DNA from: a virus | Reading direction: 5' to 3' (one strand) | IMG/VR virus record: IMGVR_UViG_3300045988_176357 | Span: 96,001 to 160,000 of that record | Length of the DNA: 64,000 nucleotides | Shown: positions 7,388-53,943 of the stretch, in pieces | How the letters are laid out: the number at the start of each line of letters is the position of its first letter | Position numbering within the stretch: position 1 is the stretch's first letter | Notes under the pieces: generated by a model | What the model was told of the DNA's origin: nothing | What the model saw: the letters and a program-made list of their open reading frames with translations, nothing else | Databases searched by the model: none | Program-made: the position numbers and the translations under genes

Positions 7388-9072
7388 TGACGTTATACAC
7401 ATCCGGCTCATTTGTACTTTGTGTCAAGGTGTCCGGAGCTGTAAAGTATTACGCTGTAAAGAACTTCTATCTTCGCAAGGCTAAAGGCGCAATAACTCAG
7501 TGCCGGGTGAGCCTTATGGATGTTACCTGGCAGGTGGAAGTCAGAAATCTGTCTACATATCCGAAACTGTCGGCATTGGCATAGCTGTATAACAGTGCAT
7601 GTCAGCCTGAAACTAAACCCATGTAGTGCCAGCTGCTGTAGTACAACTCCAGATAGAACAGTGGACAGCCTGTACAATGGTTTACAGGACGTGTGTGCGT
7701 CGTAACTCCGGTTCTGGCATAGCGCCCTGGAATTACATCTTAGTATACATGTTTCTGCATGGGAAAGGCGTGCTAGCTGATGTTCTCCTATGTCAGCGAC
7801 TATAAGTATGTGGATGCTAAGTCTGCAAACAATGTGCCATAGCTGTAGAAAAACGGCCTTATAGGAGCCAACGCACAGGCAACCAATATATTCAGCACTG
7901 AAAAACTCGATACAGCGTTGCTGATTTCCAACAGCGGCCAGAGCATATAGGCCGACACCGTAGATCAGCTTTTTACCAAAGCATTCAATTACTTGCAGTA
8001 GATGCGGGCAAAACTGGCTCTTTTCGCATAGACGCCTACTATAGACTTATCCAAATACATAACCTCTCAGTACAAGATAAGTTCTGTAATCAAGTAGGCT
8101 ATCAAGGCGCCTGTAGACTTAGGACATAGTAATCCATATCTTATAGCCTTTGATCAGATGTTCGCATCAGGTATCGATAACAGGCAGCTCATCGATGCTA
8201 TAATGACTACTCTGGCCGGTTAGCGGTTCCTGACAACTGCGCCTGCTTAGCGAACACTTCCCGACGCTTAGGACAAATTGTTTATCATCCCTAATTATGT
8301 ATTGCCTGTTTAGACTCAAGATGCCATCATAACACCGGAAGACATCAATCTTGTACAGGTTACCGCCAATCCGTTGTCCCATTTAAGTATACCTGATAAA
8401 TTGTTTGTCAACCTGACGATGCTGTCGGCTTTCGATATGGGAACAAGATTGATACAGAATATACCTGGATTATATGGTGAGTACGAAGCGGTTACACCAG
8501 CCTCCAAGATAAAGCAGGCAGGTGCTCCGTGGTGGTTACTTACCATAGCTGTATAGAAGTCCAGATTCAAAACATATAAAGCCGATATGAAGAACATTCC
8601 TGTTGGTCAGTCGGTTGTCACATAGATATAGTAGAACGCAAGCTGGGCAGACGGAGCTAAACAGATGTTTGATACATATGCAAAGACACTGTATTTCAGT
8701 ATGTATGCTGCCTAGAAGCAAGCTACTGTGAGTCTGCTGCCGACTGATAAAGCTAAGGATATGGACAGGTATATAGGTAAGTCCATAGCTTTACAGCTTC
8801 CTTTAGATCAACAGAATCTGAATGACAGGAAATACAGTAAATTCTTCGGTGTTCTTGATTCAGTTACATATTAGTACGGATGCTCTACATCACCTCAGCA
8901 GTCGTCATATCTGACAATAACGGCAAATGTGACGGCGCTGACTCCATAGAGCTCTGCCTTCGCCAAGGCTATATTTCAGGATTAGCGGACACCTCTGCTC
9001 TATTAGAAAAGCCTGGCTACATCTGATATGTACGATTACAATAACAGCTCTGATTACAGTGGTTTAGCGTGA
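7384..9072 (+). CDS. Hypothetical large structural protein, TAG-recoded (563 codons).
   Basis: ATGATG at 7384. Directly translated frame 1 is open to TGA 9070-9072. The track ORF 7384..7584 is its N-terminal fragment. Confidence 0.5.
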
Positions 9073-9080
9073 GGTTTAAG

Positions 9081-9854
9081 ATGCCGGGTATATTTGAACA
9101 AATTAAAGGTCTGAATACTTCTTCTCAGAATATTGCGCCTAAACCTGTAAAGCAGCCGCAAGAAGATATCGTACAGACCATAGCCGATTGGCAGAAGAAG
9201 AGCACGCCTGAAACCACCAAACAGATATTGGACTTCATCAGGCCGACTATCGACAGTGCGCTTCATACCTATACACCTGGACAATAGAACACATTCAGAA
9301 TAAAAGCTACATCCTATGCCTTGCAGAGTCTGCGTAACTACGATGTGACAAAGAAAGTGTCTCCAAAGACCTTCGTGTTTTCAAACCTTCAAAGACTCAA
9401 CAGACTCAGAAGGTAGCGTTAGAATATCATTCATATCCCTTAGAATCAGGTCTATATGAAACAGATGCTGGACAATAAAACAGCTTAGCTGTAGAGTGAC
9501 CTGGGAAGACCGCCTACTGATTAGTAGCTGAGCTAGGCTCTGTATATCTCCAAGCGCAAACTGGATAAGCTGCGTTAGCAGTCCTCTGTTACCATAAGTT
9601 AGACAATGTCTCAAGATCCGTAGGGACACTAGATGCTTGGAGCGTCTGATGTCACGGACAGGGATTACTATAATTATGTCTACTCATCTGTATCTCCTGT
9701 AGATAAAAAGATAATGTAGTGGACATCCGGGTACAAAACAAAGCCGCTGTCCAATAATCAGATAGCTGAGAAACTGCATATATCACCTGGGGCTGTATCA
9801 CAGAGAAAGAACAGGATACAGCAGCTCATGGGTTAGGTCAGAGGTCTCGTATGA
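9081..9854 (+). CDS. Sigma-70-family sigma-factor-like protein (region 2 and region 4.2 HTH), TAG-recoded (about 17 in-frame TAG).
   Basis: GAGG RBS then ATG 9081. Frame 0 is open to TGA 9852-9854. The C-terminal LSNNQIAEKLHISPGAVSQRKNRIQQL matches the sigma region 4.2 pattern. The N-terminal IADWQKK..ILDFIRPTIDSALHTY resembles region 2. Confidence 0.45.
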
Positions 9855-27115: not shown

Positions 27116-28936
27116 TTAATAACTTTCATATACATCCTCCTATGGGTCTATTACAACAGGGTGACTGGAGACGGCCTGCACGAACTGACTGAACTAGGAT
27201 CTTGGACTGAAGTTCTGATACTAAGCGGCCAGCACAGAAGTGTCGAACTTCTAGCCCAGCACAGGAAATATTCCGAACTTATGCCATAAGGCTGAGCAGG
27301 CAAAGTTGACGGCATGTGCAAAGTCATCAGGCACACCTGGTTTCTTGCCTATGAAGACAACTGTCCTGTTGCCTATATACGCTCTTGGATCCTACTTAAG
27401 CGCAAGAAAGTCATAGGCAAGCTAAGTCTTATCCTATACATTGAACTTCATTATACGTACAGACGTATCTTTCAGCGCCTGCACAATAAGAGCAAGACTT
27501 CTGGACTTGTCTATTGTATAGTTATAATAGTCAGCCTGCTGCTGAGCTTTGTCGTAGCTTATGATGTCGCCTTTCTTAGGTCCGGTATATGTGAACGGAA
27601 CAGGATACGTGCTTGTGAGCAGCAATCCTCGCTGCTTCATGATCTACATGCGCACAAAACCCGCACCACCGTTATCGTGTGCAAATATATCAGGATGCAG
27701 GATATCTATCCATTGCATCAGCTACTAGGCCTGCTATGTCGGCGTCGTTCCTTTAGGGTATCTCTTGCCGAACAATATATCTATGCGGTCTGTATCCGTT
27801 CGCAACCCTGCTACACACGCAGTTGTGAACGACTATGATACAGCGCCCCCTCCGTCCCAGTCTACACCTATGACTATGCATCTGTACATGTGCCTGATAC
27901 CGAGTATATCCTGTACTGAAGCGATGTTGTAGTCATGTTGGGCTGCAACAAGATCACGCAATGTCAGAGGATTGACTGACTAGTCATACGGCCAGCCGAA
28001 AACTTCATTGTACACACGCAGCTTGGAATAACTGTCGACTTTAGCCAGAAGGTCGTACCATTTTCTAGGTTCATTGGTAGCCTAGTCGATCGTAAGATGC
28101 AGCGGATGTATCGGCTGCCCTATATGGTAGCCTGGGAAAGTGAACTGTCTCTAAGGTACGGCATGTACGAAGCCTCCGTTATGTGGAAACACAGTGCGCC
28201 CACACCTGGAACACACAAGGCCGTTCTTTCCGAGCATTCCAAGAAGATCGTGCTATGGATTGGGTATATTGAAATGGTTGCAGTGTGTGCATCTTATTAT
28301 CCACTATGCCTGCGATGACTTATCCCACAGGATACCGCAAGTAGTATCTGTCGTAGTCGGAGTACCCGCATACATGGAATACCCGTGCCGCAGGTTGGCC
28401 GACATAACCTCACGTATGACAGGCACGAAACTGAAATCCACGTCGGCAAGCTCGTCTATGACTATCTGTGAGCATCCGGACAGGCCTCGCAGAGCATCTG
28501 CGTTGGCGTAAGCGGTGCCCAGATACATGAACGAGCCGACATTGAACTGCTTCAGCAGAGTTTTGCTGAGCTATACTTTTTTGATAAGAGATCCGCATAT
28601 CGGACTGGACTCAAGCAGAGGTTTCAGAATGGTAGTGTGATATCGTGTCCTCTGTTCATCTCTTGGTTCGATATGAAGTATATCATAAAACGGTATCAGA
28701 CTGGAACGCAGTACAGACGACTAGGCTATCTGATAGGTCTTACCGACCTGTCGTCCAGTCATCCATACCTGCTATCTAGGATATATAGTGTTGAACATGG
28801 GTGCGAACTGATAGTGCAGATCCAATGTCAGAGGTTTCCCCTTAAGAGAGAAGATACTCAACAGTGGAATGAACGTCCTCAGTTTGTCCTAGGCGATAGC
28901 ATTCAAACACGATTTAACAGCATCAATTAAAGTCAT
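27116..28936 (-). CDS. Terminase large subunit-like ATPase, TAG-recoded (606 aa with several in-frame TAG).
   Basis: Minus-strand frame traced from ATG 28936 to TAA at 27116-27118. Walker A is QVWMTGRQVGKT; a Walker B-like IVIDELADVD follows. The size fits TerL. Track ORFs 27434..27640(-) and 28304..28528(-) are fragments. The + ORF 27314..27838 is its antisense shadow. Confidence 0.5.
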
Positions 28937-28972
28937 AGTAATTCAAGCATAAAACAGAAAGGAAAAACGAAA

Positions 28973-32837: not shown

Positions 32838-33923
32838 ATGAAACGAAAGATATATCTTGTCAGTGACTGCCATGTGAAGTCACGATTATGGACCAACTTT
32901 GCTGCTGTGCAGGGCGACGCCTACATGGCAATGCGCAAGATGGCATCCGAAACCGACCCGTCAAGTGTGCTGATCTCCTGTGGAGATTTGCTCGACTCGA
33001 ACAGACCCTCCAATGTCGACCTTGCCGAGACAGCCGAATTCCTGAACCACTTTCACAGGGTGCTGTACATAGCTGGCAACCATGACGACTGTCAGCCGTC
33101 TATCGTGCCTGTGATGTGTCCTTATGCGTTGCATCTGACACCTGATGATGTCGTTCGTGAAGGCAATCTCGTCATCTGCGGCATTGACTGGCAGCGCAGC
33201 AGGGAAGCATTCCTTGAGTGCCTTGCTCAGGCTGCACAAACACTCAGTGACGAGACCAAAGATGGCGGTCAACCCGTATTGATCATGCACCAGGCTGTGC
33301 ACGATTTCCTGTCCATCGACGGCGCCAGCATGTGCACAGCAAAGGAAATCCTGGATACCGTAGGACAGGACGTCCTTGTGTACTCAGGCGACATCCATGT
33401 TGTGCAGCATGTCGCTTCCAGCCTTGGCAAAGGCAGAGTACAGTCTCCAGGTCCGCTCGTCCCTCAGGACACTTTGCAGGCCCGTAGACAGCAGGTTTAC
33501 TGGGAACTCGACAGTGACACCGGGGTACCCACCCGGCACCCCGTCAGCGTGCGTTCTTTTGCGTTTCTTGACAGTGCCGCTCCCGACTTCGACCTTGCAG
33601 CGTCTCTGGATGCTCTTGACAGAAGCCTTGAGCTGCCGCCTGTTGCGATACTGCAGGTGCACGGTGACTATGTGCCGCCTAAAAGTCAGCTCAACAGAGA
33701 GGACTGCATTGTAGTTGTCCGTACGGAACGGACTTCGACAGAAGTAAGAACTGCAGATGAGTCCAGTGTAACTACACTGGAGGAAGCCATAGCTCAGGAA
33801 ATTGAAGCTACCGAACCGCTGCTTGCTGACGTGTTGAAGCCGTTGGTGGACAGGCTGACAACTGCGGATAAACCTGACGAGCTTCTATCGACATTGCTTA
33901 CGAATTGGGAGGTGACCACATGA
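32838..33923 (+). CDS. sbcD: SbcD/Mre11-like metallophosphoesterase nuclease.
   Basis: Phosphoesterase motifs LVSDCHV, GDLLD and GNHDD. Overlaps the SbcC-like gene, as in sbcDC operons. Confidence 0.7.
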   Translation: MKRKIYLVSDCHVKSRLWTNFAAVQGDAYMAMRKMASETDPSSVLISCGDLLDSNRPSNVDLAETAEFLNHFHRVLYIAGNHDDCQPSIVPVMCPYALHLTPDDVVREGNLVICGIDWQRSREAFLECLAQAAQTLSDETKDGGQPVLIMHQAVHDFLSIDGASMCTAKEILDTVGQDVLVYSGDIHVVQHVASSLGKGRVQSPGPLVPQDTLQARRQQVYWELDSDTGVPTRHPVSVRSFAFLDSAAPDFDLAASLDALDRSLELPPVAILQVHGDYVPPKSQLNREDCIVVVRTERTSTEVRTADESSVTTLEEAIAQEIEATEPLLADVLKPLVDRLTTADKPDELLSTLLTNWEVTT

Positions 33924-34166
33924 TACAAGTCAAACACATGGATCTGTTTCATTTCTGCCGGTTCGACAAGCTGTCGCTTGATGTACAGCCAGGTCTAACC
34001 AGAATAGCAGGTCCCAATGGCTCAGGTAAGACGACGGTCTTCAGAGCCCTGATCTACGGTCTGACCGGTTGGTGTGATCCGACATGGGGCACACAAAGCG
34101 ACCTGCAGCAGGACGATGAAAGCGTTCCAGGCTATGTCGAACTGACACTGTCGGTAGACGGCGAGG
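33905..34166 (+). CDS. sbcC: SbcC/Rad50-like ATPase, exon 1 (Walker A GPNGSGKTT). Interrupted by IStron copy 1; the apparent TAA at 34169 lies in the shared element sequence.
   Basis: The N-terminal ABC/SMC head and the C-terminal half at 35832..37514 are each incomplete alone. They fuse in frame when the element is removed. Confidence 0.6.
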
Positions 34167-35835
34167 CTTAACAACCTCCATTGAGGAGTGATCCTCATTG
34201 CAAAGAAAGTGAATTGCTAATAGATCCCAAGAGCCTCACGATGCCTGTAACAAGGATCGAAAGAGAAAACAAAGAAGTGAGGATACCGCAAGGCGACAGT
34301 AAGCCTAAACGGGAGTGACAACGGACGTTTAGCAGCCGAGCCTTGTATCGAGAGATACCCGGTACAAGGAAGGTTCATCGACTAGGACATCGTGTCCGTA
34401 CCCGAGCAGCCGTGTGCGTGATAACGCACGAAAGCAAGGGGAAGTACTCTGGCTCAGGAATGAGTCAATGAAATAGTCAGTGCTTCATGGAAACATGAAG
34501 AGTGGTCAGGAGTGACAACCTGAAACCTGCTACTGGGCGGCAACCGGTAGTGAACAGAACCATGGACTTCAATTGTATTGTTATTTCGTCAAGTTTTATT
34601 TACCGTTTTGATCTTTACAGAACGGAGTTATAATACTCTCAGTAACTGGAGAACACTTTGGAACCAAGAGCACACATAATCAGATTGTACCCGACAAGGG
34701 CACAGGAGAAGCAGCTGAAGAATACCATCGGCTGCGCTCGTTATGCGTACAATTGGGCTCTCGAGAAGTGGCGGGAGATGTATGCCGCACATGATAAGGA
34801 CAAGGCTTCTCCAAAGCCAAGTGCCTTGAAGCTGACCAAGTTATGGACTCAGGAGAAGCCTGACTGGGCACATGAGACAGCTTATTGCAGCCAGCAAAGA
34901 GCGATACATAACGTAGGCGTCGCTTATCAGCGCCTTTAGAGGGGCTTATCGGCGAAGCCGAAGTTCCATAAGAAGGGCGGCAAGGAGACGTTTTACGTTG
35001 ATAATGCGAAGGTCGCATGGTACGGCAATAGAATCCAGTTGCCCGACATCGGACGTGTCCGCGTAGCGGAGCAGATCCGTTTCGAGGGCAAGGTAATGGG
35101 CTACACAGTGTCCCATTATGCCGGACAGTGGCATCTCATAGCTCAGGTCAACGCCGAAGGCGACGTGAAACCTTACTGCGCCGATCCCGAGTCCGTCGTC
35201 GGTATCGACGTAGGACTTCTGAATCCGGCTGTAGCCTCCGATGGAACCGTCTTGCAGCTCCCCATAGAGAAGCTCCAAAAGCTTGACGCCAAGCTCAGGC
35301 GGCAGCAGAAGGCACTCTCCAGAAGTCAGCGCAACTCCAGAAACCACGCGAAGCTTCTCGTAAAGAAGCAGCGTACGCAGAATAAGATCAACAACATCCG
35401 AAAGGATGCAGTACATAAGTTCACGACCACCATTGCCAAGAGCCACGGCAAGGTAGTCATCGAAGATCTGGACATCCAAGGAATGAAGGATAAAGCTCCT
35501 TCAAGAGCCGTCAGAAGGGCGCATAACAGTTCCCTCATGGGCGCCATCCATCGGCAGCTCTCCTACAAAGTCCAGCACCTGATCAAGGTGAATCGCTTCT
35601 TCCCGTCTTCCAAGACCTGCAGCAACTGCGGGCACATAAGGAGCGCCCTTGATTTAAGTGAACGTACATATCATTGCGACCACTGCGGAGCGGTCATCGA
35701 CCGCGACCTCAATGCCGCAATCAACTTGATGAAATCAGGGCTGGTCAAGCCCGAAGCGTCTGTGGAGCAAGTCGGTACCGACTTGCGTTGAAGCAGAAAG
35801 TACAAACGGACGCAACGTCCGTAAGTTCATGACAG
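34167..35835 (+). mobile_element. IStron copy 1: structured 5' group-I-intron-like RNA module (about 34167-34650) plus IS605-family tnpB, inserted in the sbcC-like gene. Boundaries are within a few nt.
   Basis: Shares about 370 nt of structured 5' sequence, including the R-like GGTTCATCGACTAGGAC core, and a common 3' end ccgtaagttcatgacag with copy 2. The host gene reading frame is restored on excision. Confidence 0.65.
34658..35791 (+). CDS. tnpB: TnpB (IS605 OrfB family RuvC-like nuclease) inside IStron copy 1. ATG lost; TTG start tentative.
   Basis: RLYPTRAQ N-terminal HTH; RuvC-I GIDVGL, RuvC-II IEDLD, CxxC..CxxC zinc finger, RuvC-III DRDLNAAINL. 83% identical to the protein at 43225..44340. 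Confidence 0.8.
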
Positions 35836-37514
35836 AATACGTCCTGAAGAGGTTTGCAGGGACTGGTACGAAGCTGGTCGACACATTATGTAAAGACGAT
35901 GCAATAATTGTTAAGAATCGTCAAAAAATAAATGCATGGTTAGAGCAGTTCACAGGCATCTCTATGCCGGTAATGGCACAGTTGATGTGGTTGCGACAGG
36001 AAAACTCATCTTGGCTGCTGACGGCTACAGCTGCTCAGATCAACCAGTTCCTCGGTCTCATTTTCGACACCAAAAAGCTTGAGACCTACAGACAGCATCT
36101 GAAGAATGCCTGTGACAGCATACCGAAGCTGCGCGATGACTTTGACACAAGAAGGAAGCAAGCTGCAGAGACATTGCACCAGCAGTCCTCGCAGAAGGAG
36201 CTGCTGTCACAACAGCTGCAGGAACAGCAGGCACTTGTACAGGCTACACGGGAAACGCTGCAGGCATTTGGTAACAGCATGTCTGTAGCCGACCGTGACA
36301 AGATGCTGCGTCTGTGCGAACAGGAACTGGCAGTCTACAACAGAGACCTCGACAAGTATAGGGATCTGCAGGAAGCTCCTGTCGTGGATATTGAAACCGA
36401 GACAGCAGCTGAGACTGCATTGGTCTCCAAAATATCTGCACAGCGGCTTGAAAAGTCAACTTGTGAGCGGATGCTGAACAGTGCCCGTGCCGATAGAGAC
36501 AACAGCAAGTGGAGGCTTGATCAGCTGCGTCATATACATACGCCTGACACCTGTGAACTATGTGGTTGCAACCTCAGTACCAGTCCGGAAACGTACCGTA
36601 ACAACAAAGTAAAACTGTTACTGCAGCAGTCTTTAAGCTACGAAGAGGCCATCAGAACCTTTTCTGAGACCTACGAAACCAGTGCACATAAATGCATTGA
36701 ACTGGAAAAGCGTATGGCCCTGCTTGAACATGCTATTGCTTCAGATAATAAAGTGCTGGAATCAATCGGACAGAAACGTGCTGAAAGACTCCGGTACATG
36801 GAACAGCTGCAGCATAAAACAGAGCTTCAACACAAGATTGAACAGGTGACTGCTGAAATCGAAAAGCTCAAGGCAACACCTGTGTACGATGCGTCTATAT
36901 CGAAGCAGCAGATTGAAAGCATGCTTCGCAGTGCCGAAGCCAGAGAGACGGAACTGAAATCCGCATATGAGACCTGTATTGCTTCTATTGCGTCTGCACA
37001 ACAGATAATACATGATGCAGAAGAAGATGCTGTCAGGTATAAACGTAACGAACGTGTGCGCCAGGTTCTGTCGACTTTGCGTGATGTTTTGTCACAAAGC
37101 AGAGCACAGGCAAGATACCTTAACAGCAAGATATCTGCCTTGAATGGCAATATAGCTCACTATCTGCAACTGTCCGAGATGCCTTTCACAGTCTTCCTCG
37201 ACCCTGCAGAGCATGTTTTCAAGTACAGGATGGATGATTGTGATGTGCAGCATCAGGCAGGCATGCTGTCTGGTGCACAAAAGGCTGCCGCCGCAATTGC
37301 AATACAGATGTCGCTCGTTGTTACGGCAGTGCCGGATCTGACATTGCTTCTGCTGGATGAAGCGGATGCTTCGTTGTCACCGGAGAACAAAGTAATTGCT
37401 ACCAAGCTTTACAGGGTCCTTGCAGAGACGCTCAGTGGAAGCGATGGCAGCACATTCGTCATAAGTCAGTCAGACACTGTTGCTGCAGAATGTGACAGAG
37501 AAATAACACTATAA
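35832..37514 (+). CDS. sbcC: SbcC/Rad50-like ATPase, exon 2: coiled coil, ABC signature LSGAQK, Walker B LLLLDEAD.
   Basis: Continues exon 1 in frame if 34167..35835 (or 34169..35831) is spliced out, giving the junction VDGE(E/AT)YVLKRF. Coiled-coil-rich middle section. Confidence 0.6.
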   Translation, partial: TEYVLKRFAGTGTKLVDTLCKDDAIIVKNRQKINAWLEQFTGISMPVMAQLMWLRQENSSWLLTATAAQINQFLGLIFDTKKLETYRQHLKNACDSIPKLRDDFDTRRKQAAETLHQQSSQKELLSQQLQEQQALVQATRETLQAFGNSMSVADRDKMLRLCEQELAVYNRDLDKYRDLQEAPVVDIETETAAETALVSKISAQRLEKSTCERMLNSARADRDNSKWRLDQLRHIHTPDTCELCGCNLSTSPETYRNNKVKLLLQQSLSYEEAIRTFSETYETSAHKCIELEKRMALLEHAIASDNKVLESIGQKRAERLRYMEQLQHKTELQHKIEQVTAEIEKLKATPVYDASISKQQIESMLRSAEARETELKSAYETCIASIASAQQIIHDAEEDAVRYKRNERVRQVLSTLRDVLSQSRAQARYLNSKISALNGNIAHYLQLSEMPFTVFLDPAEHVFKYRMDDCDVQHQAGMLSGAQKAAAAIAIQMSLVVTAVPDLTLLLLDEADASLSPENKVIATKLYRVLAETLSGSDGSTFVISQSDTVAAECDREITL

Positions 37515-40139: not shown

Positions 40140-41649
40140 CAGCCTGACTATAAAGCTCAGCTATACTGTATGCTCGTGTACCCCGTGGCCTGTGAGCTTG
40201 CGGGATACAGCTCGTTTCACAATGCGTGAGCCAAAGACGCCGGAAGAACTTCGAGCAGAACGAGACGCCATTAAGCGTGCAGGCAGCACAGGCAAACCGA
40301 AGCCCTACAAGTTTACAAGTCACAGCTGCGTTGAAACAAGGAGTGGCTCAGGCTACTTCCTTATAGGCTTTTGGCCGCACCTCAAAGCAGAACTCGAAAA
40401 GCGCAATATACCTTACAGTGTAGACGACCAGCGAGATCGTTCACTCAGACCTGATCCTGATTATAGCTGCCTGTCGGGTATACAGTTCCGAGAAGGACAG
40501 GCAGAAGCATTGGCAAGTATCATATCAAGTGATGGCGGTCTGTTGTGCTCCAATGTTTCGTTCGGTAAAAGCTTCCTTATTAAGGTGCTCTGTCAATTAT
40601 ATCCTACATTGAACATACTTGTCGTATGCAATGCGGGCGAAGTCGTACGGGAGCTGTACAGAGCCATCTCTGAGGTGCTTCCCGGTCAGGTTGGCCTGCT
40701 GGATATGAAACACAGCGAGATCAATGGCAAACGCATCATCGTTACCACAACGAAGTCCATGACGAAAGTCAAACCGGAACAGGTACAGCTGATGCTCGTG
40801 GATGAATGTCATTGCGCTGGGTACAACGAGACAGGATTCCAAATCCAGCAGTTCTGCTTCTGCAGACGATTCGGATTCACAGCAACCCCGATCAGAAACC
40901 AAGGCGATCATCTGTACTTTGAATCGTTATTTGGGCCTGTGCTGCAGCAGCAGACATTTGAGCAGTCTGTAGCGGCAGGTTCGGTAACTCCGATTGAGTA
41001 CACTATGGTACCGATTGAGAAAAAGCTGACATATCTTGACGACATAAAGCAGCTGCCGAATGCAATTCAGTACCGACTGATGTATACCAACAACCCTGTA
41101 AGGAACAGACTTATTGCAGGTGTGTTCAACGATATCAGACAGGCGAATCCTGATGCACAGATACTTATCATGACTCAGACTATCGAGCACTTGATACGCC
41201 TATGTGAACTTATTCCGGGTTTGCATTTCGCACACGGTGAAAGAGGCGATCTCAGTTCATATAAGCGCAAGAAGGGGCTCGAGAATGTCGACATGTTCAA
41301 GTACAGACAGTCAGCTGAGCAACTGTCGTACGTGAAAAAACAGGCCGAGCTTGGTGAGTATAAGTCGCTTATAGCTACAGGCGTCTGGTCAAAGGGCATC
41401 AACCTGCACCACTTATCCGTACTTATAAGAGCGGATGGTGCTGTATCCGGGATACCGTCTGTGCAGATACCTGGACGACTTGCGCGGCTTGACGATGGAA
41501 AGGAAATTGCGTTTCTTGTGGACTTTTCGGACGAGTTCTGTGAGTCTGCAGGTAACAGAGCAGTAGCCAGAACCAGGCATTACAACAAGGAAGGATATGC
41601 GTGCGTATCTTATATAGATATGCTGCAGGAAATAAGAAGGACAAAATGA
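40132..41649 (+). CDS. Superfamily-2 DNA helicase (DEAH-like). Alternative start 40222.
   Basis: Motif I GKS, motif II VDECH, motif III FTATP, motif VI PGRLARLDDG. Confidence 0.6.
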   Translation: MPDSLTIKLSYTVCSCTPWPVSLRDTARFTMREPKTPEELRAERDAIKRAGSTGKPKPYKFTSHSCVETRSGSGYFLIGFWPHLKAELEKRNIPYSVDDQRDRSLRPDPDYSCLSGIQFREGQAEALASIISSDGGLLCSNVSFGKSFLIKVLCQLYPTLNILVVCNAGEVVRELYRAISEVLPGQVGLLDMKHSEINGKRIIVTTTKSMTKVKPEQVQLMLVDECHCAGYNETGFQIQQFCFCRRFGFTATPIRNQGDHLYFESLFGPVLQQQTFEQSVAAGSVTPIEYTMVPIEKKLTYLDDIKQLPNAIQYRLMYTNNPVRNRLIAGVFNDIRQANPDAQILIMTQTIEHLIRLCELIPGLHFAHGERGDLSSYKRKKGLENVDMFKYRQSAEQLSYVKKQAELGEYKSLIATGVWSKGINLHHLSVLIRADGAVSGIPSVQIPGRLARLDDGKEIAFLVDFSDEFCESAGNRAVARTRHYNKEGYACVSYIDMLQEIRRTK

Positions 41650-42729
41650 AGTACAAGAAAGGTGAATTCGGTTACTGGTGGACCAGGAAAAATGAGGATA
41701 TTGAAGGCGGAGAGTATGAGGGCTCCATATGTTGTCCTGAAAATCTTACGTCTTTAAGAGGAGCACCACGAATAGTGACAGGTGAATTCTTTTGTCACCG
41801 TTGCCGTATCACAACACTGAGAGGAGCGCCTGAGAAAGTAGGCGGAAATTTTAGCTGTGTTGAAACGAAGCTGACAGATCTGAAAGGAGCTCCTAAAGAA
41901 GTCGGCGGTAACTTCTACTGTGACATGTGCGGGCTGATATCTCTGGAAGGAGGTCCTCGCAGGATAGGAGGAAGCTTTTACTGCGATAACAACAAGCTCA
42001 CTTCGTTAGAGGGCGGTCCCACTGAGATTTTCGGTGACTACAGATGCAGCTATAACGAGCTTAAAAATTTGTTAGGCGCACCAGAAGTTATTCCTGGCGA
42101 TTTCATCTGCAGTGAAACCACTCTTAATTCACTGGAGGGCTGTCCAAAAGTAGTGAAGGGCTCATTGATCCTGGACTATAATTCGCTCATATCCTTGGAG
42201 CATTGCGCTAAAAGTGTAGGAGGGGACTTCAATGTAAACTTCAATGGGCTTAAGTCGTTGTTAGGCGGGCCCGTATCTGTAGGAGGATCCTATAAGTGCG
42301 TGAACAATGATCTGCGTACTCTTTTTGGTTGTCCGTCAGTCATAAACGGAGACTTTGAGTGCGCAGGCAATGCACTGAATGATCTTGCCTCCTGTCCAAG
42401 TAAAGTAACAGGTAATTTTGATTGCTGTAGTAATCATCTGGTTACCTTGGAAGGAGGTCCCACAGAGGTAGGCGGCGACTATGACTGCTCCGTCAATAAT
42501 CTACAGACGCTTAAAGGAGCTCCATCGTGTGCTAACGGTGATTTTGATTGCAGCTTCAATGAATTGACAAGTCTTGAAGGCTCTCCTGATGTGGTGGCTG
42601 GAGAATTCGTCTGTCATAATAACAAATTGGAGTCTTTGGTCGGAGGACCTAGCGTAGTGTCCGCTCACTATTGCTGTTCGTACAATAACTTGAAGTCCCT
42701 GAGAGGGATTGCTCATAAAATCGGTGGAG
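41601..42729 (+). CDS. BspA-like LRR protein, exon 1 (16 or more 21-aa repeats). Interrupted by IStron copy 2.
   Basis: Repeat pattern GxPxxVGGxFxCxxNxLxSL. The apparent stop lies in sequence shared with the copy 1 insertion site. Confidence 0.55.
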
Positions 42730-44405
42730 CTTAACAACTCCCTTTAACCAGTGATGGTTATTGAACAAGAAAGTGAATTGCTAATAGATCCCAAGAGCCT
42801 CACGACGCCAATAAAATGGATCGAAAGAGAAAACAAAGAAGTGAGGATACCGCAAGGCGACAATAAGCCTAAACGGGAGTGACAACGGACGTTTAGCAGC
42901 CGAGCCATGCGTTCGACAGAACGCCAGCGCATGGAAGGTTCATCGACTAGGACATTGTGTCCGTACCCGAGCAGCCATGTGCGTGATAACGCACGAAAGC
43001 AAGGGGAAGTACTCTTGGTTGGGAACAACCAAATGAAATAGTCAGTGCTTCATGGAAACATGAAGAGCGGTTAGGAGTGACAACCTGAAACCTGCTACTG
43101 GGTGGCAACCGGTAGTGAACAGAACCATGGACTTCAATTGTACTTTAATTTCATCAAGAACATTTAACGTTTTGATCTTTACAGATACGGTGTATAATAC
43201 ACCTAAACTGAAGGTGTAAATTTCATGATCAGAACAAACGTCATAAGATTGTACCCGACAAGGGCACAGGAAGCGCAGCTGAATAACACAGCTGGCGCTT
43301 GTCGTTTCGCATGGAATAAAGCCCTCAGTTACTGGGATGAGCAATATGAAGCTCATCTTAAGGATAAATCCATTCCGTTACCGATTTCTTCCAAAGTAGC
43401 AAGCTGGTATAAAGACAACCGCGAAGAATGGGCGTCCGAAACATCTTCTGTCTGTCAGCGCCAGGAAATACTTCACCTTGGCAAAGCCTTCCACAGCTAC
43501 TTTAGACGTCCGGACCATTTCGCACATTCGAAGTTCCACAAGAAGGGAATTAAGGACTCATTCGAGGTTCCGAATGACAAGGCGAAAATCAAAGACGGCA
43601 GACTTTCATTGCCGAAGATAGGCGAAGTCAAAATGGCTGAGCCGCTTCGCTACCAAGGCAAGATATGCAGCTACACAGTAAAGAAGTCAGGCGGCAACTG
43701 GTATGTTCACATACCTGTGGAAACAGGTAAGGACGAGAGAGTTCGTTGCATCAATCCAGAGTCCGTCGTCGGTATCGACGTAGGACTTCTGAATCCGGCT
43801 GTAGCCAGCGACGGCACCAAGCTGGAGCTCCCAAAGGAAACCTTGGACAAGCTCGACGCCAAACTCAGGCGACAGCAAAAGGCACTCTCCCGTTCACAAA
43901 GGAACTCCAGAAACCATGCCAAGCTTCTTCTCAAGAAGCAGCGTACTCAAAATAAGATCAACAACATCCGAAAGGATGCAGTACACAAGTTCACGACCGC
44001 CATTGCCAAGAGCCACGGCAAGGTAGTCATTGAGGATCTGGATATAAAAGAGATGAAGGCCAAGGCCCCCGCACGTTCAGTGCGTCGCGCCTACAACAGC
44101 TCCCTCATGGGCGCCATTCGCTGGCAGCTCTCTTACAAAGTCCAGCACCTGATCAAGGTGAATCGTTTCTTCCCGTCTTCCAAGACCTGCAGCAACTGCG
44201 GGCACATAAAGGGCGACCTCACCGTAGGTGAACGTACATATCATTGCGACCACTGCGGAGCGGTCATCGACCGCGACCTCAACGCCGCAATCAACTTGAT
44301 GAAAGCAGGGCTGGTCAAGCCCGAAGTGTCTGTGGAGTAAGCTGGTACCAGCTTACGTTGAATCAGAAAGTACAGACGGACGCAATGTCCGTAAGTTCAT
44401 GACAG
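42730..44405 (+). mobile_element. IStron copy 2: group-I-intron-like module plus tnpB inserted in the LRR-protein gene. Boundaries are within a few nt.
   Basis: Starts with the same cttaacaac...gaacaagaaagtgaattgct sequence and ends with the same ccgtaagttcatgacag as copy 1. Excision fuses ...KIGG(D/AT)IYCADNELP, continuing the repeat. Confidence 0.65.
43225..44340 (+). CDS. tnpB: TnpB (IS605 OrfB family) inside IStron copy 2. Intact, with ATG start and TTGATC-17-TATAAT promoter upstream.
   Basis: Same motifs as copy 1. Promoter-like ttgatctttacagatacggtgtataat at about 43170-43197. Confidence 0.85.
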   Translation: MIRTNVIRLYPTRAQEAQLNNTAGACRFAWNKALSYWDEQYEAHLKDKSIPLPISSKVASWYKDNREEWASETSSVCQRQEILHLGKAFHSYFRRPDHFAHSKFHKKGIKDSFEVPNDKAKIKDGRLSLPKIGEVKMAEPLRYQGKICSYTVKKSGGNWYVHIPVETGKDERVRCINPESVVGIDVGLLNPAVASDGTKLELPKETLDKLDAKLRRQQKALSRSQRNSRNHAKLLLKKQRTQNKINNIRKDAVHKFTTAIAKSHGKVVIEDLDIKEMKAKAPARSVRRAYNSSLMGAIRWQLSYKVQHLIKVNRFFPSSKTCSNCGHIKGDLTVGERTYHCDHCGAVIDRDLNAAINLMKAGLVKPEVSVE

Positions 44406-47731: not shown

Positions 47732-47930
47732 ATCCGACAGGACAATTGAGATACTAGGCGACATGTGTGAACCTTATGCACTGTACTTCTTGTTTGCAGG
47801 CGTAGGATTGCCTTGCGACAAGTACCGTGCAGCTGCCAAGGAATACGCAGCCATGTTTCCGGATGCAGTACGTGCTCTGCCTGAACCATATAAGAAACTT
47901 GGAGAGGCACTGACACATGATACCACTTGA
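47454..47930 (+). CDS. Hypothetical protein.
   Basis: ORF track; plausible globular composition. Confidence 0.5.
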   Translation: MTERELRLRLKRLLGTDRGLPVEKLAAELTTHKVDIFPYMTWLWKTQGQKFRVLLTKKVADYAKAAEKEKQSLPQLIVNAGTIFLHLSEGSLESDRTIEILGDMCEPYALYFLFAGVGLPCDKYRAAAKEYAAMFPDAVRALPEPYKKLGEALTHDTT

Positions 47931-50415
47931 CAAGCATGACTTGACTATGCTGCATGTGCTAAGTTCCGAGAAACTGATGCTGAAGTCACTGAAGGCGGCT
48001 AAGGCAGGACAGGAACTGTTCCCTCCGAGACGTGTGCCTCATCTTGATCTGTTGTGGCGGCACTTCATACGTTTCGCCATACAGTCCAAGAAAGAAGGAC
48101 ACTGGCTGCAGTGGGACAGACAGGCATATGTAGCCGATTGTCTTGAAGAGCTGAAGCAGCGTGACGACATCAGCGACGAATGCAAGGCGCGATTCCAGGC
48201 AATATGCGTGCAGTATATCGGCGCTGAGCCGTTGGATGCAGCGGCAGGTGATAAGCTGCTGATGGATGCTGTAAACGAGGCAATCAGAACACAGATCAGC
48301 AGAGCTGTGTACAACTCCGAGGCCTTTGACGGTATCAGACAGCTGGTCAATAAAGGCGTCGAGCTGAAGGAATCTCTTGAGACAGCGGATGAGAAGCAGA
48401 AATTGTTTGTGAATCCGTTGCTTGACGTCGAGACTTACCTGCATGTACTGCCTAAGATGCCAACAGGTGTACGCTATTTCGACAGGGTGACTAACGGTGG
48501 TATGTCTGAAGGTGAGGTAGCGTTGATTGCTGGCTTGATGGGCGGTGGAAAGTGCCTTGGGAAAGACACACCCGTTCTCATGTACGACGGAACTGTAAAG
48601 AAAGTTCAGGATGTACGTGTAGGTGATCAGCTCATTGGTATGGACTCTACACCAAGGACAGTATTGTCTTTAGGTAGAGGCCGTAGTGAGATGTATAAAG
48701 TCACACCAGTAAAAGGTGACTCATTTACAGTTAACAGGTATCATATTTTGACGATGATATGCAGCGGTCCTGTGTTGTGGAAAGGAGTTAGATATAAACC
48801 AGGCGAGCTTATTGATATCTGTGTTGAAGATTTGTACGCGCAGTCCGACAGCTTTAAATCACTCCTTAAGGTGGTCAGAACAGGTGTGGACTTTAAATCC
48901 AAGTCTGCGCCTGAGTTAGACCCTTACTTTGTAGGTCTGTATTTGGGTGATGGCACAAAGGGAAAGGCACAGATCACAACTGCCGACACGGAAGTTGTTG
49001 GCTACTGTGTTAAGTATATGCAAGGTCTAGGGTTTAATTGCAACATACATAAAGATCCCAGACACAATTGCATTTATGTAAATATAAGTAAAGTCAGCAA
49101 CAAAACCGAAGGGGCGTTAACTATAATCCGTAGGAATACGTTTATAGATGGTGAGAAGCGAATTCTGGATGTGTATAAGACTGGAAGCAGAGAGGTTCGC
49201 ATGAAAATACTTGCGGGTCTAATTGACTCCGATGGATACACGCACCATGGTTTCCATGAGATAGTTACGAAGTATAGCAGTCTAGCAGATGATATATGTT
49301 TCGTAGCGAGATCATTAGGGTATGCAGCATATGTTAAAAAGTGTGAGAAAACATGCTATAATACAGGTGCTGCAGGCACGTACTATAAGGTCAGTATATC
49401 TGGAGATTTCTCAGACTTACCTGTTTTGTTACCTAGACATAAGTTGTCAAAACGTAAGCAAGTTAAATCTGTGCTGAGGACAGGGTATACTATAACCAAA
49501 TTACCCGAGGATGAGTATTATGGGTTTACCATAGATGGTGATCACAGATTTCTTCTGGGTGACTTTACAATTACACATAACACAGCAACAGCAATCCAAC
49601 TTGTCGGCAGTCAGTTGCTTGTAGGCAATCCAGTAGCATGGTTCACCTTTGAGCAGCCATTCGATCAGGACCTGATGCAGCGTATGGTATCCTTCATCAC
49701 AGGCTACAGCCTGGACATCATACGTGGCCGAGAGTTTAAGGATCTGCCAGAGGATATCCGAACAAAGTTCCTTGCACTCAGCAACCAGATGTCGGACAAG
49801 CTGATAGCAGCAGACTTCTCGAACAACAACATGCTTGACAAGAACGATCCTGAAGACGATGGCTCTGTGTACAGTCTGTGCAAGCGACTTGACATATGGG
49901 CGGACCAAGGTAAAGTGCCAAGTTACATCATGTTCGACTGGGTAGGCGCGGCAGTAAAGAGACTGGCTGCTGTACGCAGCATAGACATTGGGCAGATCAC
50001 CAATTACATCGCGCTTGCCAATGAGATCATCGATGGTCTTGTGCAGCTTGCCAAGCAGTACCATACGCGTGTGATCTTCTTTCATCAGCTGGACCCGGCG
50101 ATCAAGAAGTCGCCTCCGTCCAGAAAGCCCACAACTGTAGAGCTTCAAATGATGAAGACCATGTCGAACTACACGCAGTATGCAATGGCAATCGGCAAGC
50201 GCGACGAAAACCAGCGCTGTTGGTTCATCTGCGACAAGTGTCGTAACAGTTATCCATCGGAATGCGTGATCGAACTTGATGGCGCACATGCCAAGTTCAA
50301 TCTGCTGGAAGGCTATGCACCGGGTCGCAATGGTCAGTTCATCAACATCAACGAGCTGCAGGAAGAGCTCAGTGAGAACAGCGACACGGAAAACAGCTAC
50401 CAGCCTATAATCTGA
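47917..50415 (+). CDS. DnaB-like replicative helicase / RecA-superfamily ATPase, interrupted by an intein in the Walker A P-loop.
   Basis: Extein GVRYFDRVTNGGMSEGEVALIAGLMGGGK|TATAIQ matches the DnaB H1 box when the intein is removed. Confidence 0.55.
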   Translation: MIPLDKHDLTMLHVLSSEKLMLKSLKAAKAGQELFPPRRVPHLDLLWRHFIRFAIQSKKEGHWLQWDRQAYVADCLEELKQRDDISDECKARFQAICVQYIGAEPLDAAAGDKLLMDAVNEAIRTQISRAVYNSEAFDGIRQLVNKGVELKESLETADEKQKLFVNPLLDVETYLHVLPKMPTGVRYFDRVTNGGMSEGEVALIAGLMGGGKCLGKDTPVLMYDGTVKKVQDVRVGDQLIGMDSTPRTVLSLGRGRSEMYKVTPVKGDSFTVNRYHILTMICSGPVLWKGVRYKPGELIDICVEDLYAQSDSFKSLLKVVRTGVDFKSKSAPELDPYFVGLYLGDGTKGKAQITTADTEVVGYCVKYMQGLGFNCNIHKDPRHNCIYVNISKVSNKTEGALTIIRRNTFIDGEKRILDVYKTGSREVRMKILAGLIDSDGYTHHGFHEIVTKYSSLADDICFVARSLGYAAYVKKCEKTCYNTGAAGTYYKVSISGDFSDLPVLLPRHKLSKRKQVKSVLRTGYTITKLPEDEYYGFTIDGDHRFLLGDFTITHNTATAIQLVGSQLLVGNPVAWFTFEQPFDQDLMQRMVSFITGYSLDIIRGREFKDLPEDIRTKFLALSNQMSDKLIAADFSNNNMLDKNDPEDDGSVYSLCKRLDIWADQGKVPSYIMFDWVGAAVKRLAAVRSIDIGQITNYIALANEIIDGLVQLAKQYHTRVIFFHQLDPAIKKSPPSRKPTTVELQMMKTMSNYTQYAMAIGKRDENQRCWFICDKCRNSYPSECVIELDGAHAKFNLLEGYAPGRNGQFININELQEELSENSDTENSYQPII
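48553..49581 (+). mobile_element. Intein (343 aa) with a double-motif LAGLIDADG homing endonuclease.
   Basis: Starts CLGKDTPV directly after GGGK. LAGLIDADG blocks FVGLYLGDGTK and ILAGLIDSDGYT. Ends ...TITHN followed by the +1 Thr that restores GKT. Confidence 0.75.
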
Positions 50416-52671: not shown

Positions 52672-53943
52672 GTGCCCGGCATAAGGACAAACGAAATGAA
52701 AACAGAAAAAGTGCTGAAGAAGAACGCAATCAAGGCCTATAAAGCCTTTAACAGTGACCTTACCTGCAAAGGCTTCCAATATGAAGTCGGGAAGGAATAC
52801 CACCATATAGGCGAGATTACAGTATGTTGGGCAGGCTTCCATGCTTGTGAAAGTTTGGCTGACTGCTTCCGCTTTTACCCGTTCAGTGAAACTAAAACCA
52901 GAGTGGCCGAGGTGCTCGCCTGGGGTAAAGTCAAGTACGAAGATACAGGTGTAAAACTCTGCGCCTCAAATATCAAGGTAGTCAGAGAACTCACATGGAG
53001 CGAGGTGTTGTCTCTGTGTAACAGCGGCGACAATAATACCGGCGACTGTAATAGCGGCAACCATAACACCGGTGACTGGAACAGTGGCAGCCGTAACAGT
53101 GGCAATTGGAATACAGGCAACTGGAACAGCGGCAACAATAACACCGGTGACTGGAATAGCGGCGACTATAACACCGGCAACTATAACAGCGGCTACTGGA
53201 ATTCCGGCAACAGTAACAGTGGCGAAGATAATAGCGGCAACAGTAACACCGGCAAGCGGAATAGCGGTGACAATAATAGCGGCAACAGTAACACCGGCAA
53301 CTATAATACAGGCAACGGTAACAGCGGCAACCAGAACACCGGCTGCGGTAACAGCGGCGACTGTAACAGCGGCGACTGTAACAGCGGCGACTGTAACAGC
53401 GGCAACCATAACAGAGGCTGCGGTAACAGCGGCGACTGGAATAGCGGCAACTGGAACATTGGCAACTGGAACATTGGCGACCGGAACAGCGGATACTTAA
53501 ATACTTCGGCACAGAAATATTGCTTTATCTTTAACAAACAAGTTGAAAAGTCAGTCTTGGCTCAGATTGAGTTTCCGGAGTTCATGTGCTTCACTTTGAT
53601 AGAGTGGATACCTGACTACAAAATGTCACAGCAGGAGAAAGAGCGGCACCCTGAATACGTCACAACAGGAGGATACCTAAAGGAGTACACATATAAGGAA
53701 GCCTTCAGGAAGTCCTTCGAGAAGGCCAGACGCAAATCTGACTGGCCCAAGCAGCGTCAGAAGCTGCTGGATCTGCCCAACTTCGATGCCAAGGTATTCG
53801 AGGAGATATCAGGCATCACATCTGAGGAACTTGGTGTCAGCGCTAAGGAGCTGGCAGACAAGCCAAAGACAGCCATGGAAGTCACAATGGCGGACATAGA
53901 GAAGGTATTCGGTTGTAAAATCAAGATTGTAAAGGATAGGTGA
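52672..53943 (+). CDS. Period-5 Asn/Gly repeat protein with about 27 [ST]-G-x-x-N units, between a conserved N-domain and a C-terminal VTMADIEKVFGCKIKIVK module.
   Basis: Pentameric periodicity is visible across residues about 115-250. Antisense track ORFs 52966..53512 are repeat shadows. Confidence 0.6.
   Translation: MPGIRTNEMKTEKVLKKNAIKAYKAFNSDLTCKGFQYEVGKEYHHIGEITVCWAGFHACESLADCFRFYPFSETKTRVAEVLAWGKVKYEDTGVKLCASNIKVVRELTWSEVLSLCNSGDNNTGDCNSGNHNTGDWNSGSRNSGNWNTGNWNSGNNNTGDWNSGDYNTGNYNSGYWNSGNSNSGEDNSGNSNTGKRNSGDNNSGNSNTGNYNTGNGNSGNQNTGCGNSGDCNSGDCNSGDCNSGNHNRGCGNSGDWNSGNWNIGNWNIGDRNSGYLNTSAQKYCFIFNKQVEKSVLAQIEFPEFMCFTLIEWIPDYKMSQQEKERHPEYVTTGGYLKEYTYKEAFRKSFEKARRKSDWPKQRQKLLDLPNFDAKVFEEISGITSEELGVSAKELADKPKTAMEVTMADIEKVFGCKIKIVKDR

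Follow-up and report, generated by a model that had tools for sequence, protein, structure and literature searches.

A putative LAGLIDADG homing intein in the Walker A motif of a DnaB-like helicase from an uncultured gut phage, and the allelic states of its insertion site

Introduction

No bacterial protein hosts inteins more often than DnaB, in which insertion point b corresponds to the P-loop (PMC4760082). At this point, DnaB-b, the P-loop serine acts as the +1 splice nucleophile (PMC6195587), and an insertion between the invariant lysine and the nucleophilic threonine has been termed the 'classic' P-loop insertion (PMC5050341). The mycobacterial DnaB-b inteins, referred to as DnaBi1, are class 3 mini-inteins that have no endonuclease, and class 3 is defined by the lack of a nucleophile at residue 1 together with a WCT triplet and a cysteine in block F (PMC6195587). 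Here we describe what is very probably a splicing-competent class 1 intein with a LAGLIDADG homing endonuclease, placed between the Walker A lysine and threonine of a DnaB-like helicase that is encoded in a 64,000-nucleotide (nt) window of viral DNA (positions 96,001 to 160,000 of IMG/VR record IMGVR_UViG_3300045988_176357). A first-pass annotation of this window had called the DnaB P-loop a classic hotspot for intein insertion, a description with which the literature agrees (PMC4760082, PMC6195587, PMC5050341).

Some crAss-like phages of the gut, in the Delta and Zeta groups, combine dense group I introns and inteins with stop-codon reassignment, as set out in the relevant passages of PMC7886860. 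The phage examined here resembles them as those passages portray them, being a gut phage with recoded late genes and with several group I introns and an intein in core genes (PMC7886860). The same passages place inteins mainly in the large terminase gene, terL, and contain no mention of the helicase intein described below (PMC7886860).

Results

The helicase precursor is an 832-amino-acid open reading frame (ORF) on the plus strand at 47917-50415, which opens with ATG, closes with TGA and is read in the standard code, with zero in-frame TAG codons. Its first 212 residues, the N-extein (47917-48552, plus strand), comprise a DnaB-like N-terminal helical domain, a linker and the start of a RecA-like domain as far as Walker A Lys212, the last residue of GLMGGGK (precursor residues 206-212). 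The rest of the RecA-like ATPase domain is supplied by a C-extein of 277 amino acids plus the stop codon (49582-50415, plus strand). Between the two lies an insert of 343 amino acids (precursor residues 213-555; 48553-49581, plus strand) that begins at Cys213 with CLGKDT (nt 48553) and ends with DFTITHN at residue 555 (nt 49581), with Thr556 next. The insertion point is between the invariant lysine and the threonine of Walker A, GGGK/T in GxxxxGKT, where the slash marks the junction here and below. When the insert is excised in silico, a 489-amino-acid protein with a continuous GGGKT Walker A motif results, its junction reading GLMGGGKTATAIQ, and the junction stretch of this spliced helicase is AGLMGGGKTATAIQLVG. 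The insert is also compositionally foreign to the gene, with a G+C content of 41.2% against 51.1% and 50.5% in its flanks.

The insert has the organization of a PI-SceI-like class 1 intein, in which a LAGLIDADG endonuclease domain interrupts a Hint splicing domain. Six of its residues (C1, H64, D133, D227, H342 and N343) are invariant when it is aligned with 40 relatives, and all six fall in recognizable motifs on the plus strand. Cys1 in block A (48553-48555), the putative nucleophile for the N-S acyl shift, is invariant in 41 of 41 aligned sequences and is the first residue in 98 of 98 full-length intein homologs. Block B reads N61-R-Y-H64 (48733-48744), an NxxH variant of TxxH whose N61 is shared by at least 90% of the aligned sequences. 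The first LAGLIDADG motif, FVGLYLGDGTK (intein residues 126-136, starting at precursor residue 338; 48928-48960), contains the catalytic Asp133, and the second, ILAGLIDSDGYT (intein residues 219-230, starting at precursor residue 431; 49207-49242), contains the catalytic Asp227. Block G consists of His342-Asn343 plus the +1 threonine (49576-49584), and this residue, Thr556 of the precursor, would double as the splice-junction nucleophile and the Walker A threonine of the mature helicase. Pfam families Hom_end_hint (8.6e-23, 81.9 bits against a cut-off of 32.1), Hom_end (1.6e-11) and LAGLIDADG_3 (2.2e-7) all match the insert above their curated cut-offs, at levels that chance cannot account for. 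By tblastn, this is the sole copy of the intein in the window.

An AlphaFold2 model of the intein, built on the alignment with 40 relatives, has a mean predicted local distance difference test (pLDDT) score of 94.9 and a predicted template modelling (pTM) score of 0.92. Its best structural matches are eleven chains of PI-SceI, the VMA1 intein of Saccharomyces cerevisiae (E 1.7e-26 to 5.6e-23), on which it superposes with a template modelling score of ~0.73-0.80 on the query; these are followed by the TliVMA intein, Prp8 inteins and then I-DmoI. PI-SceI is also the best sequence match to the insert among PDB entries (2.5e-24, residue 1 to 343). The two share architecture and motif order, namely Cys1, two LAGLIDADG motifs with catalytic aspartates and a C-terminal HN, and Lys202 of the phage intein aligns with K301 of PI-SceI. 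Block B of PI-SceI is NxxH as well (Asn76/His79), in a stretch outside the computed alignment. They differ in that identity is just 22-24%, in length (343 against 454 amino acids) and in setting, since PI-SceI sits in a eukaryotic V-ATPase with a +1 cysteine, whereas the phage intein sits in a helicase with a +1 threonine. With 67 amino acids between block A and the endonuclease, against ~152 in PI-SceI, the phage intein lacks most of the additional DNA-recognition region of the yeast protein.

Given its P-loop position, we considered whether the intein could belong to class 3, as the known DnaB-b inteins do. Block F reads YYGFTIDGDHRFLL and contains no cysteine, and since the intein in addition starts with a cysteine, it is assigned to class 1 and not to class 3. 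M. smegmatis DnaBi1 therefore shares with the phage intein its host family, its P-loop point and the use of the P-loop serine or threonine as +1 nucleophile, but DnaBi1 is of class 3 and has no endonuclease, whereas the phage intein has Cys1 and a full LAGLIDADG domain; the site is common to both, and lineage and mechanism class are not. The TerL1-a inteins of mycobacteriophages likewise occupy a 'classic P-loop' position, but their host is the terminase and not a helicase; in the phage studied here, TerL carries an uninterrupted GRQVGKT.

The identity of the host protein becomes apparent once the insert is removed, as the helicase passes the Pfam thresholds for DnaB_C (31.4 bits against a cut-off of 27, residues 181-400) and KaiC-ATPase (38.1 bits against 26.6) only after in-silico excision. 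The spliced protein also matches phrog_19, 'DnaB-like replicative helicase', at 1.2e-21. When a profile of the host protein was compared with PDB sequences, KaiC alone was matched, around Walker A. We therefore weighed a KaiC/RadA-like ATPase with no helicase function, which we rejected on the strength of a full-length fold match to DnaB: for an AlphaFold2 model of an intein-free homolog (pLDDT 82.4), the top 50 Foldseek matches in the PDB are all bacterial DnaB, T4 gp41 or phage G40P, with spans of ~460-490 columns and E down to 4.7e-17. The host is thus a divergent superfamily 4 (SF4) DnaB-like helicase with an N-terminal helical domain and a RecA-like domain. The exact 832-amino-acid protein of the window recurs on human-gut metagenome contigs.

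A search of the spliced sequence against 5.8 billion proteins recovered homologs with and without the insert. An intein-free protein of 489 amino acids (P0001, contig L001; a cluster of 69 sequences) is 99% identical to the spliced helicase over its full length, and ~25 more homolog clusters of 484-491 amino acids, with 52-65% identity, are all without the insert. The uninterrupted DNA of L001 at the site is GGTGGAAAA/ACAGCA; it reads ATGGGCGGT GGA AAA/ACA GCA ACA and is collinear with window sequence to either side of nt 48553 and 49581, the flanks of the empty site being GCTGGATTGATGGGCGGTGGAAAA before and ACAGCAACAGCAATCCAACTGGTC after the junction. We found no point in favor of regarding the segment as a native, immobile, lineage-specific domain of this helicase family. 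Such a reading, which we consider practically impossible, is refuted by the empty-site allele, that is, by an exact presence/absence polymorphism at 99% protein identity; the closest relatives of the segment moreover lie in unrelated ATPases, and its G+C content is foreign to the gene.

With these data in hand, the first-pass annotation of the gene can be assessed. All of its sequence statements are correct, including the 832-amino-acid ORF, the 343-residue insert from CLGKDT to THN with Thr behind it and the recovery of GGGKT on excision. Its intein call is borne out by the Hint and homing-endonuclease families of Pfam, both over threshold, and by the superposition on PI-SceI, and its 'DnaB-like' host agrees with DnaB_C and KaiC-ATPase scores over cut-off, with phrog_19 and with the top 50 Foldseek matches to DnaB, gp41 or G40P. 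It had proposed a continuous H1 motif in the extein, and GGGKT is indeed uninterrupted both in the spliced protein and in L001. Helicase homologs carrying the segment as native sequence would have spoken against its reading; P0001 and the ~25 further clusters are instead without it.

Two further variants of the site were recovered. In a helicase of 70% identity (P0028; L003 471..2345 and L004 275..2149), the same Lys/Thr junction is occupied by an intein of 262 amino acids, in which a 67-amino-acid deletion has removed the core of the first endonuclease half and the catalytic aspartates are altered (D133S and D227V), while Cys1, NxxH and HN/T, the splicing blocks, are intact. P0028 is what an allele at the endonuclease-dead stage of a homing cycle would be expected to look like. 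In a second variant (P0030/P0031, with 57 and 72 member sequences; contig L002), the helicase ORF breaks after GGC GGT because of an ORF-less insert of 309 nt (L002 6084..6392), which Rfam identifies as a group I intron (RF00028, 51.2 bits against a gathering score of 50, E 4.8e-12). This intron separates GGT from GGA AAA ACA and thus precedes the intein site by two codons; its excision restores the intein-free L001 sequence exactly. One phage gene therefore occurs in four allelic states: empty, intein-bearing, remnant-bearing and intron-bearing. A 465-amino-acid protein (P0029) that joins an ATP-grasp N-terminus to the last ~225 helicase residues at 98% identity is most likely an assembly chimera and was ignored.

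We next compared the window with a second intein-bearing allele (P0002, contig L008). Across the exteins, 117 of 1464 nt differ (8%), and of the 489 codons, 101 carry synonymous and 13 carry non-synonymous changes. Within the intein, by contrast, the difference amounts to 11 of 1029 nt (1.1%), which makes intein DNA ~7-fold less diverged than the helicase DNA around it; of its 343 codons, 6 are changed synonymously and 5 non-synonymously. The deficit extends to silent sites (6 of 343 against 101 of 489 codons; Fisher p = 5e-17). A vertically inherited intein is expected to match the silent divergence of its flanks. The intein-free L001 is nearer to the window in extein DNA (64 of 1464 nt) than L008 is, such that an empty allele nests between intein-bearing ones. 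Because silent divergence of the intein falls below that of its flanks, and given its low G+C content, we propose that it has spread laterally among diverged helicase alleles in recent times; the divergence pattern is a likely signature of homing and indicates recent lateral movement of the intein.

These comparisons also bear on the notion that the insert does not splice, in which case the helicase gene would be a pseudogene or would encode a permanently interrupted protein. Nothing specific speaks for this beyond the fact that splicing is a prediction from sequence, and we judge it extremely unlikely, given that all catalytic splice residues are intact, that the frame is open over 832 codons, that an identical protein is found on independent contigs and in a cluster of 269 members, and that 101 synonymous against 13 non-synonymous codon changes in the exteins point to purifying selection on the helicase.

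Several observations nonetheless weigh against a splicing-competent, recently mobile intein in a DnaB-like helicase. As to the host, the NCBIfam equivalog cut-offs for DnaB are missed by far (27.7 bits against 385 for TIGR00665, and 23.3 bits against 499 for phage_DnaB TIGR03600), for which reason we call the protein DnaB-like and not an orthologue of bacterial DnaB. As to splicing and DNA cleavage, both are predicted from conserved residues, fold and population patterns and not from an experiment. As to mobility, identical flanking sequence between the window and L008 extends just ~12 nt upstream and ~20 nt downstream, so that later recombination has to be assumed; long co-conversion tracts between the two intein-bearing alleles were looked for, but none is visible, and they add no support. 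Finally, non-synonymous changes account for 5 of the 11 nt by which the two intein copies differ, a proportion that may hint at weakened selection on the endonuclease.

This last point fits a scenario in which the intein splices but its endonuclease is inactive, making it a fixed, vertically inherited passenger on the way to becoming a mini-intein. The related P0028 lineage has already lost its endonuclease core, and intein-bearing alleles form the largest cluster (269 members against 69 intein-free), as this scenario would have it. We nevertheless regard it as rather unlikely, since both catalytic aspartates and the lysine that aligns with PI-SceI K301 are intact and conserved in the family, since the ~7-fold lower divergence of the intein together with the nested intein-free allele would require recent transfer, and since empty sites persist in the population.

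To place the intein among its relatives, it was compared by tblastn with annotated phages, which yielded 704 records, the best of them 45-48% identical over all 343 residues (E of the nearest annotated relatives 1e-75 to 1e-94). These best matches lie in superfamily 2 (SF2) helicases of Klebsiella phage JD001 (Jedunavirus), E. coli phage Bas95 and Salmonella Jerseyvirus phages, and some of the nearest phage relatives are already annotated as 'intein containing helicase precursor'. The JD001, Jerseyvirus and Bas95 inteins have the same length and the same Walker A Lys/Thr position (GGGK/T or GSGK/T) as the intein described here, but their hosts are ResIII/SNF2-type helicases that are unrelated to DnaB outside the P-loop, and the flanking DNA common to both kinds of site is GGNGGNAAR/ACN alone.

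The same preference is evident in metagenomic relatives, for which 98 of 98 full-length sequences (among P0036-P0155) sit in Walker A motifs. They do so in two registers that are two residues apart: 59 of the 98 insert directly after the Walker A lysine (56 after GK and one each after AK, RK and TK), and the other 39 insert at a G/[TSC]GK[TS] junction. The +1 residue is T, S or C in all 98, and the C-terminus is His-Asn in 86, with Arg-Asn (n=11) or Lys-Asn (n=1) replacing it in sequences that all belong to the GKPG/TGK group. The hosts come from at least a dozen families of P-loop nucleoside triphosphatases (NTPases), with thymidine kinase, dTMP kinase, PhoH, AAA, ResIII/DEAD, UvrD, DnaB_C and KaiC among their domains; two other DnaB_C proteins, P0051 and P0098, carry relatives of this intein at GK/T. 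These placements suggest that the intein family is a P-loop specialist.

Elements related to the intron of the L002 helicase allele are found elsewhere in the window. The first-pass annotation had reported three IStrons there, in essential replication or repair genes, a remark that is borne out in part: three group-I-intron-like elements are indeed present, two of them with TnpB; their Rfam scores of 21.6-26.9 bits, however, are below the Intron_gpI gathering score, at which nothing in the window matches. The first element (34168..~35828; 26.9 bits) encloses a split TnpB (34658..34939 and 35039..35791, with OrfB_IS605 and a Cas12f1-like TNB domain), an architecture that is IStron-like, and it splits an sbcC-like gene into an N-terminal exon (33905..34171, Walker A GPNGSGKT intact) and a remainder at 35829..37514. 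The second IStron-like element (42735..~44410; 21.6 bits) includes a full TnpB gene (43225..44340; phrog_506, 1.9e-98). The third, a group I intron cut by the window end (63768..64000; 22.3 bits), follows a PolA-like exon (62318..63767). An association with replication or repair genes consequently stands for the sbcC-like and PolA-like hosts but not for the second element, which comes directly after an ORF (41601..42734) of ~23-residue leucine-rich-type repeats (L-x-S-L-x-G-x-P...) that is no obvious replication or repair gene.

Core segments of these three elements are 76-98% similar to the L002 intron, which itself passes the Rfam threshold, and we assign it to the IStron-like introns that the phage itself carries. 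In the PolA-like gene, the ORF ends SDGRVRCRFGIVESG and is followed by an intron 82% identical to that of the L002 helicase. The 5' junction, GCGGT/CGGTTTGGCC, is as in the L002 helicase intron, and GCGGT/CGGTTTGGCCGC is likewise common to both introns. On account of this common junction, the same intron subfamily appears to target GCGGT-ending sites in two replication genes. We asked whether the L002 intron coincides with the second register of the intein family, at Walker A positions 4/5, and it does not, as it lies between positions 5 and 6.

The proximity of intein and intron raises the prospect that two unrelated selfish elements contest the helicase P-loop DNA within one phage population, competing or cooperating over one and the same site. 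An intron that interrupts the sequence recognized by the endonuclease may shield its carrier against homing of the intein; alternatively, it may itself spread by way of the double-strand break made by the intein endonuclease, in trans or by 'collaborative' homing. We put forward this contested-site view with distinctly low confidence.

The remaining sequence of the window gives the genomic context of the helicase. From 1 to 25326, back-to-back ORFs on the plus strand are obtained only if TAG is taken as a sense codon. In-frame TAGs number 16-39 per gene, and code 11 leaves hardly any ORF of at least 150 amino acids between 3235 and 21935. With TAG read as glutamine, the products of these genes and of the TAG-containing terL (27116..28942, minus strand) are glutamine-rich; TAG is recoded as a sense codon in the late genes of the phage. 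The replication module (~30-64 kb), helicase included, uses the standard code, and neither tRNA nor suppressor tRNA genes are present in the window. Membership of the crAss-like phages, which recoding and the density of introns and inteins would suggest, is supported neither by the homolog of a baseplate-wedge (J-like) protein that is encoded in the TAG-recoded region nor by the relatives of TerL, which is only 22-25% identical to Bacillus phage terminases. The whole helicase gene has no blastn match among 50,697 phage records, and the phage is therefore taken to be without a close cultured relative. Metagenomic relatives reach lengths of 183-191 kb. The TAG-recoded ORF at 9054..9854, among the structural genes, weakly resembles an RNA polymerase sigma factor (phrog_351, 3.4e-7). 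The replication module also contains a pair of paralogous genes (52672..53943 and 56700..57677) that match phrog_14105 at 2.7e-110 and 5.4e-69, respectively, and whose products are DUF7666 proteins with pentapeptide repeats according to the source annotation of contig L009.

Discussion

By homology to PI-SceI and other class 1 inteins, we infer a conventional life cycle for this element. The 832-amino-acid precursor would be translated with a split P-loop and hence could not bind ATP. Cys213 would then undergo an N-S acyl shift at the Lys212-Cys213 bond, the thioester would be handed to the hydroxyl of Thr556, and cyclization of Asn555 would release the 343-amino-acid intein, after which an O-N shift would yield a normal Lys-Thr peptide bond and restore GGGKT in the 489-amino-acid helicase. 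The released intein is predicted to be a site-specific DNA endonuclease that, at co-infection, would cut the intein-free allele around GGT GGA AAA/ACA GCA, and homing would be completed as recombination with the intein-bearing genome repairs the break and copies the intein across. For this step the phage could draw on a UvsX-like recombinase and an SbcCD-like nuclease of its own. To the anatomy, family, empty site, polymorphism and divergence pattern observed above, this model adds a splicing chemistry, a present-day endonuclease activity and a cleavage site that are presumed.

Since the precursor would necessarily be ATPase-dead, the intein might in addition have been co-opted as a conditional protein splicing switch that gates the helicase, as proposed for DnaBi1, which occupies the same P-loop site (PMC6195587). 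Such a role would be compatible with a mobile, splicing-competent intein, and P0028 retains its splicing blocks despite decay of its endonuclease. Any intein in an essential gene needs to splice, however, and this retention is therefore no evidence of regulation. That the phage works without the intein is shown by an intein-free allele of 99% identity and by ~25 intein-free clusters, and no regulatory feature was identified. Regulation of the helicase by splicing is accordingly a very improbable addition to the homing intein that we favor.

For annotation, our findings mean that the 832-amino-acid ORF is to be read as a helicase precursor, consisting of a 489-amino-acid mature protein and a 343-amino-acid intein, rather than as a new type of large protein. 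Among inteins the element is an ordinary one, and it leaves the current understanding of inteins unchanged. What is new here is the contrast between intein and extein divergence, the endonuclease-dead remnant, the nearby intron allele and the restriction of relatives to Walker A motifs, observations that are useful but unsurprising. As a compact PI-SceI-type intein of 343 amino acids with a defined empty target in a 99%-identical helicase, it is an easy candidate for biochemical characterization. The exclusive placement of its 98 relatives in Walker A motifs adds to the known preference of inteins for P-loops, and the four states of its insertion site give a clean view of the homing cycle in nature, here in an uncultured phage of the gut.

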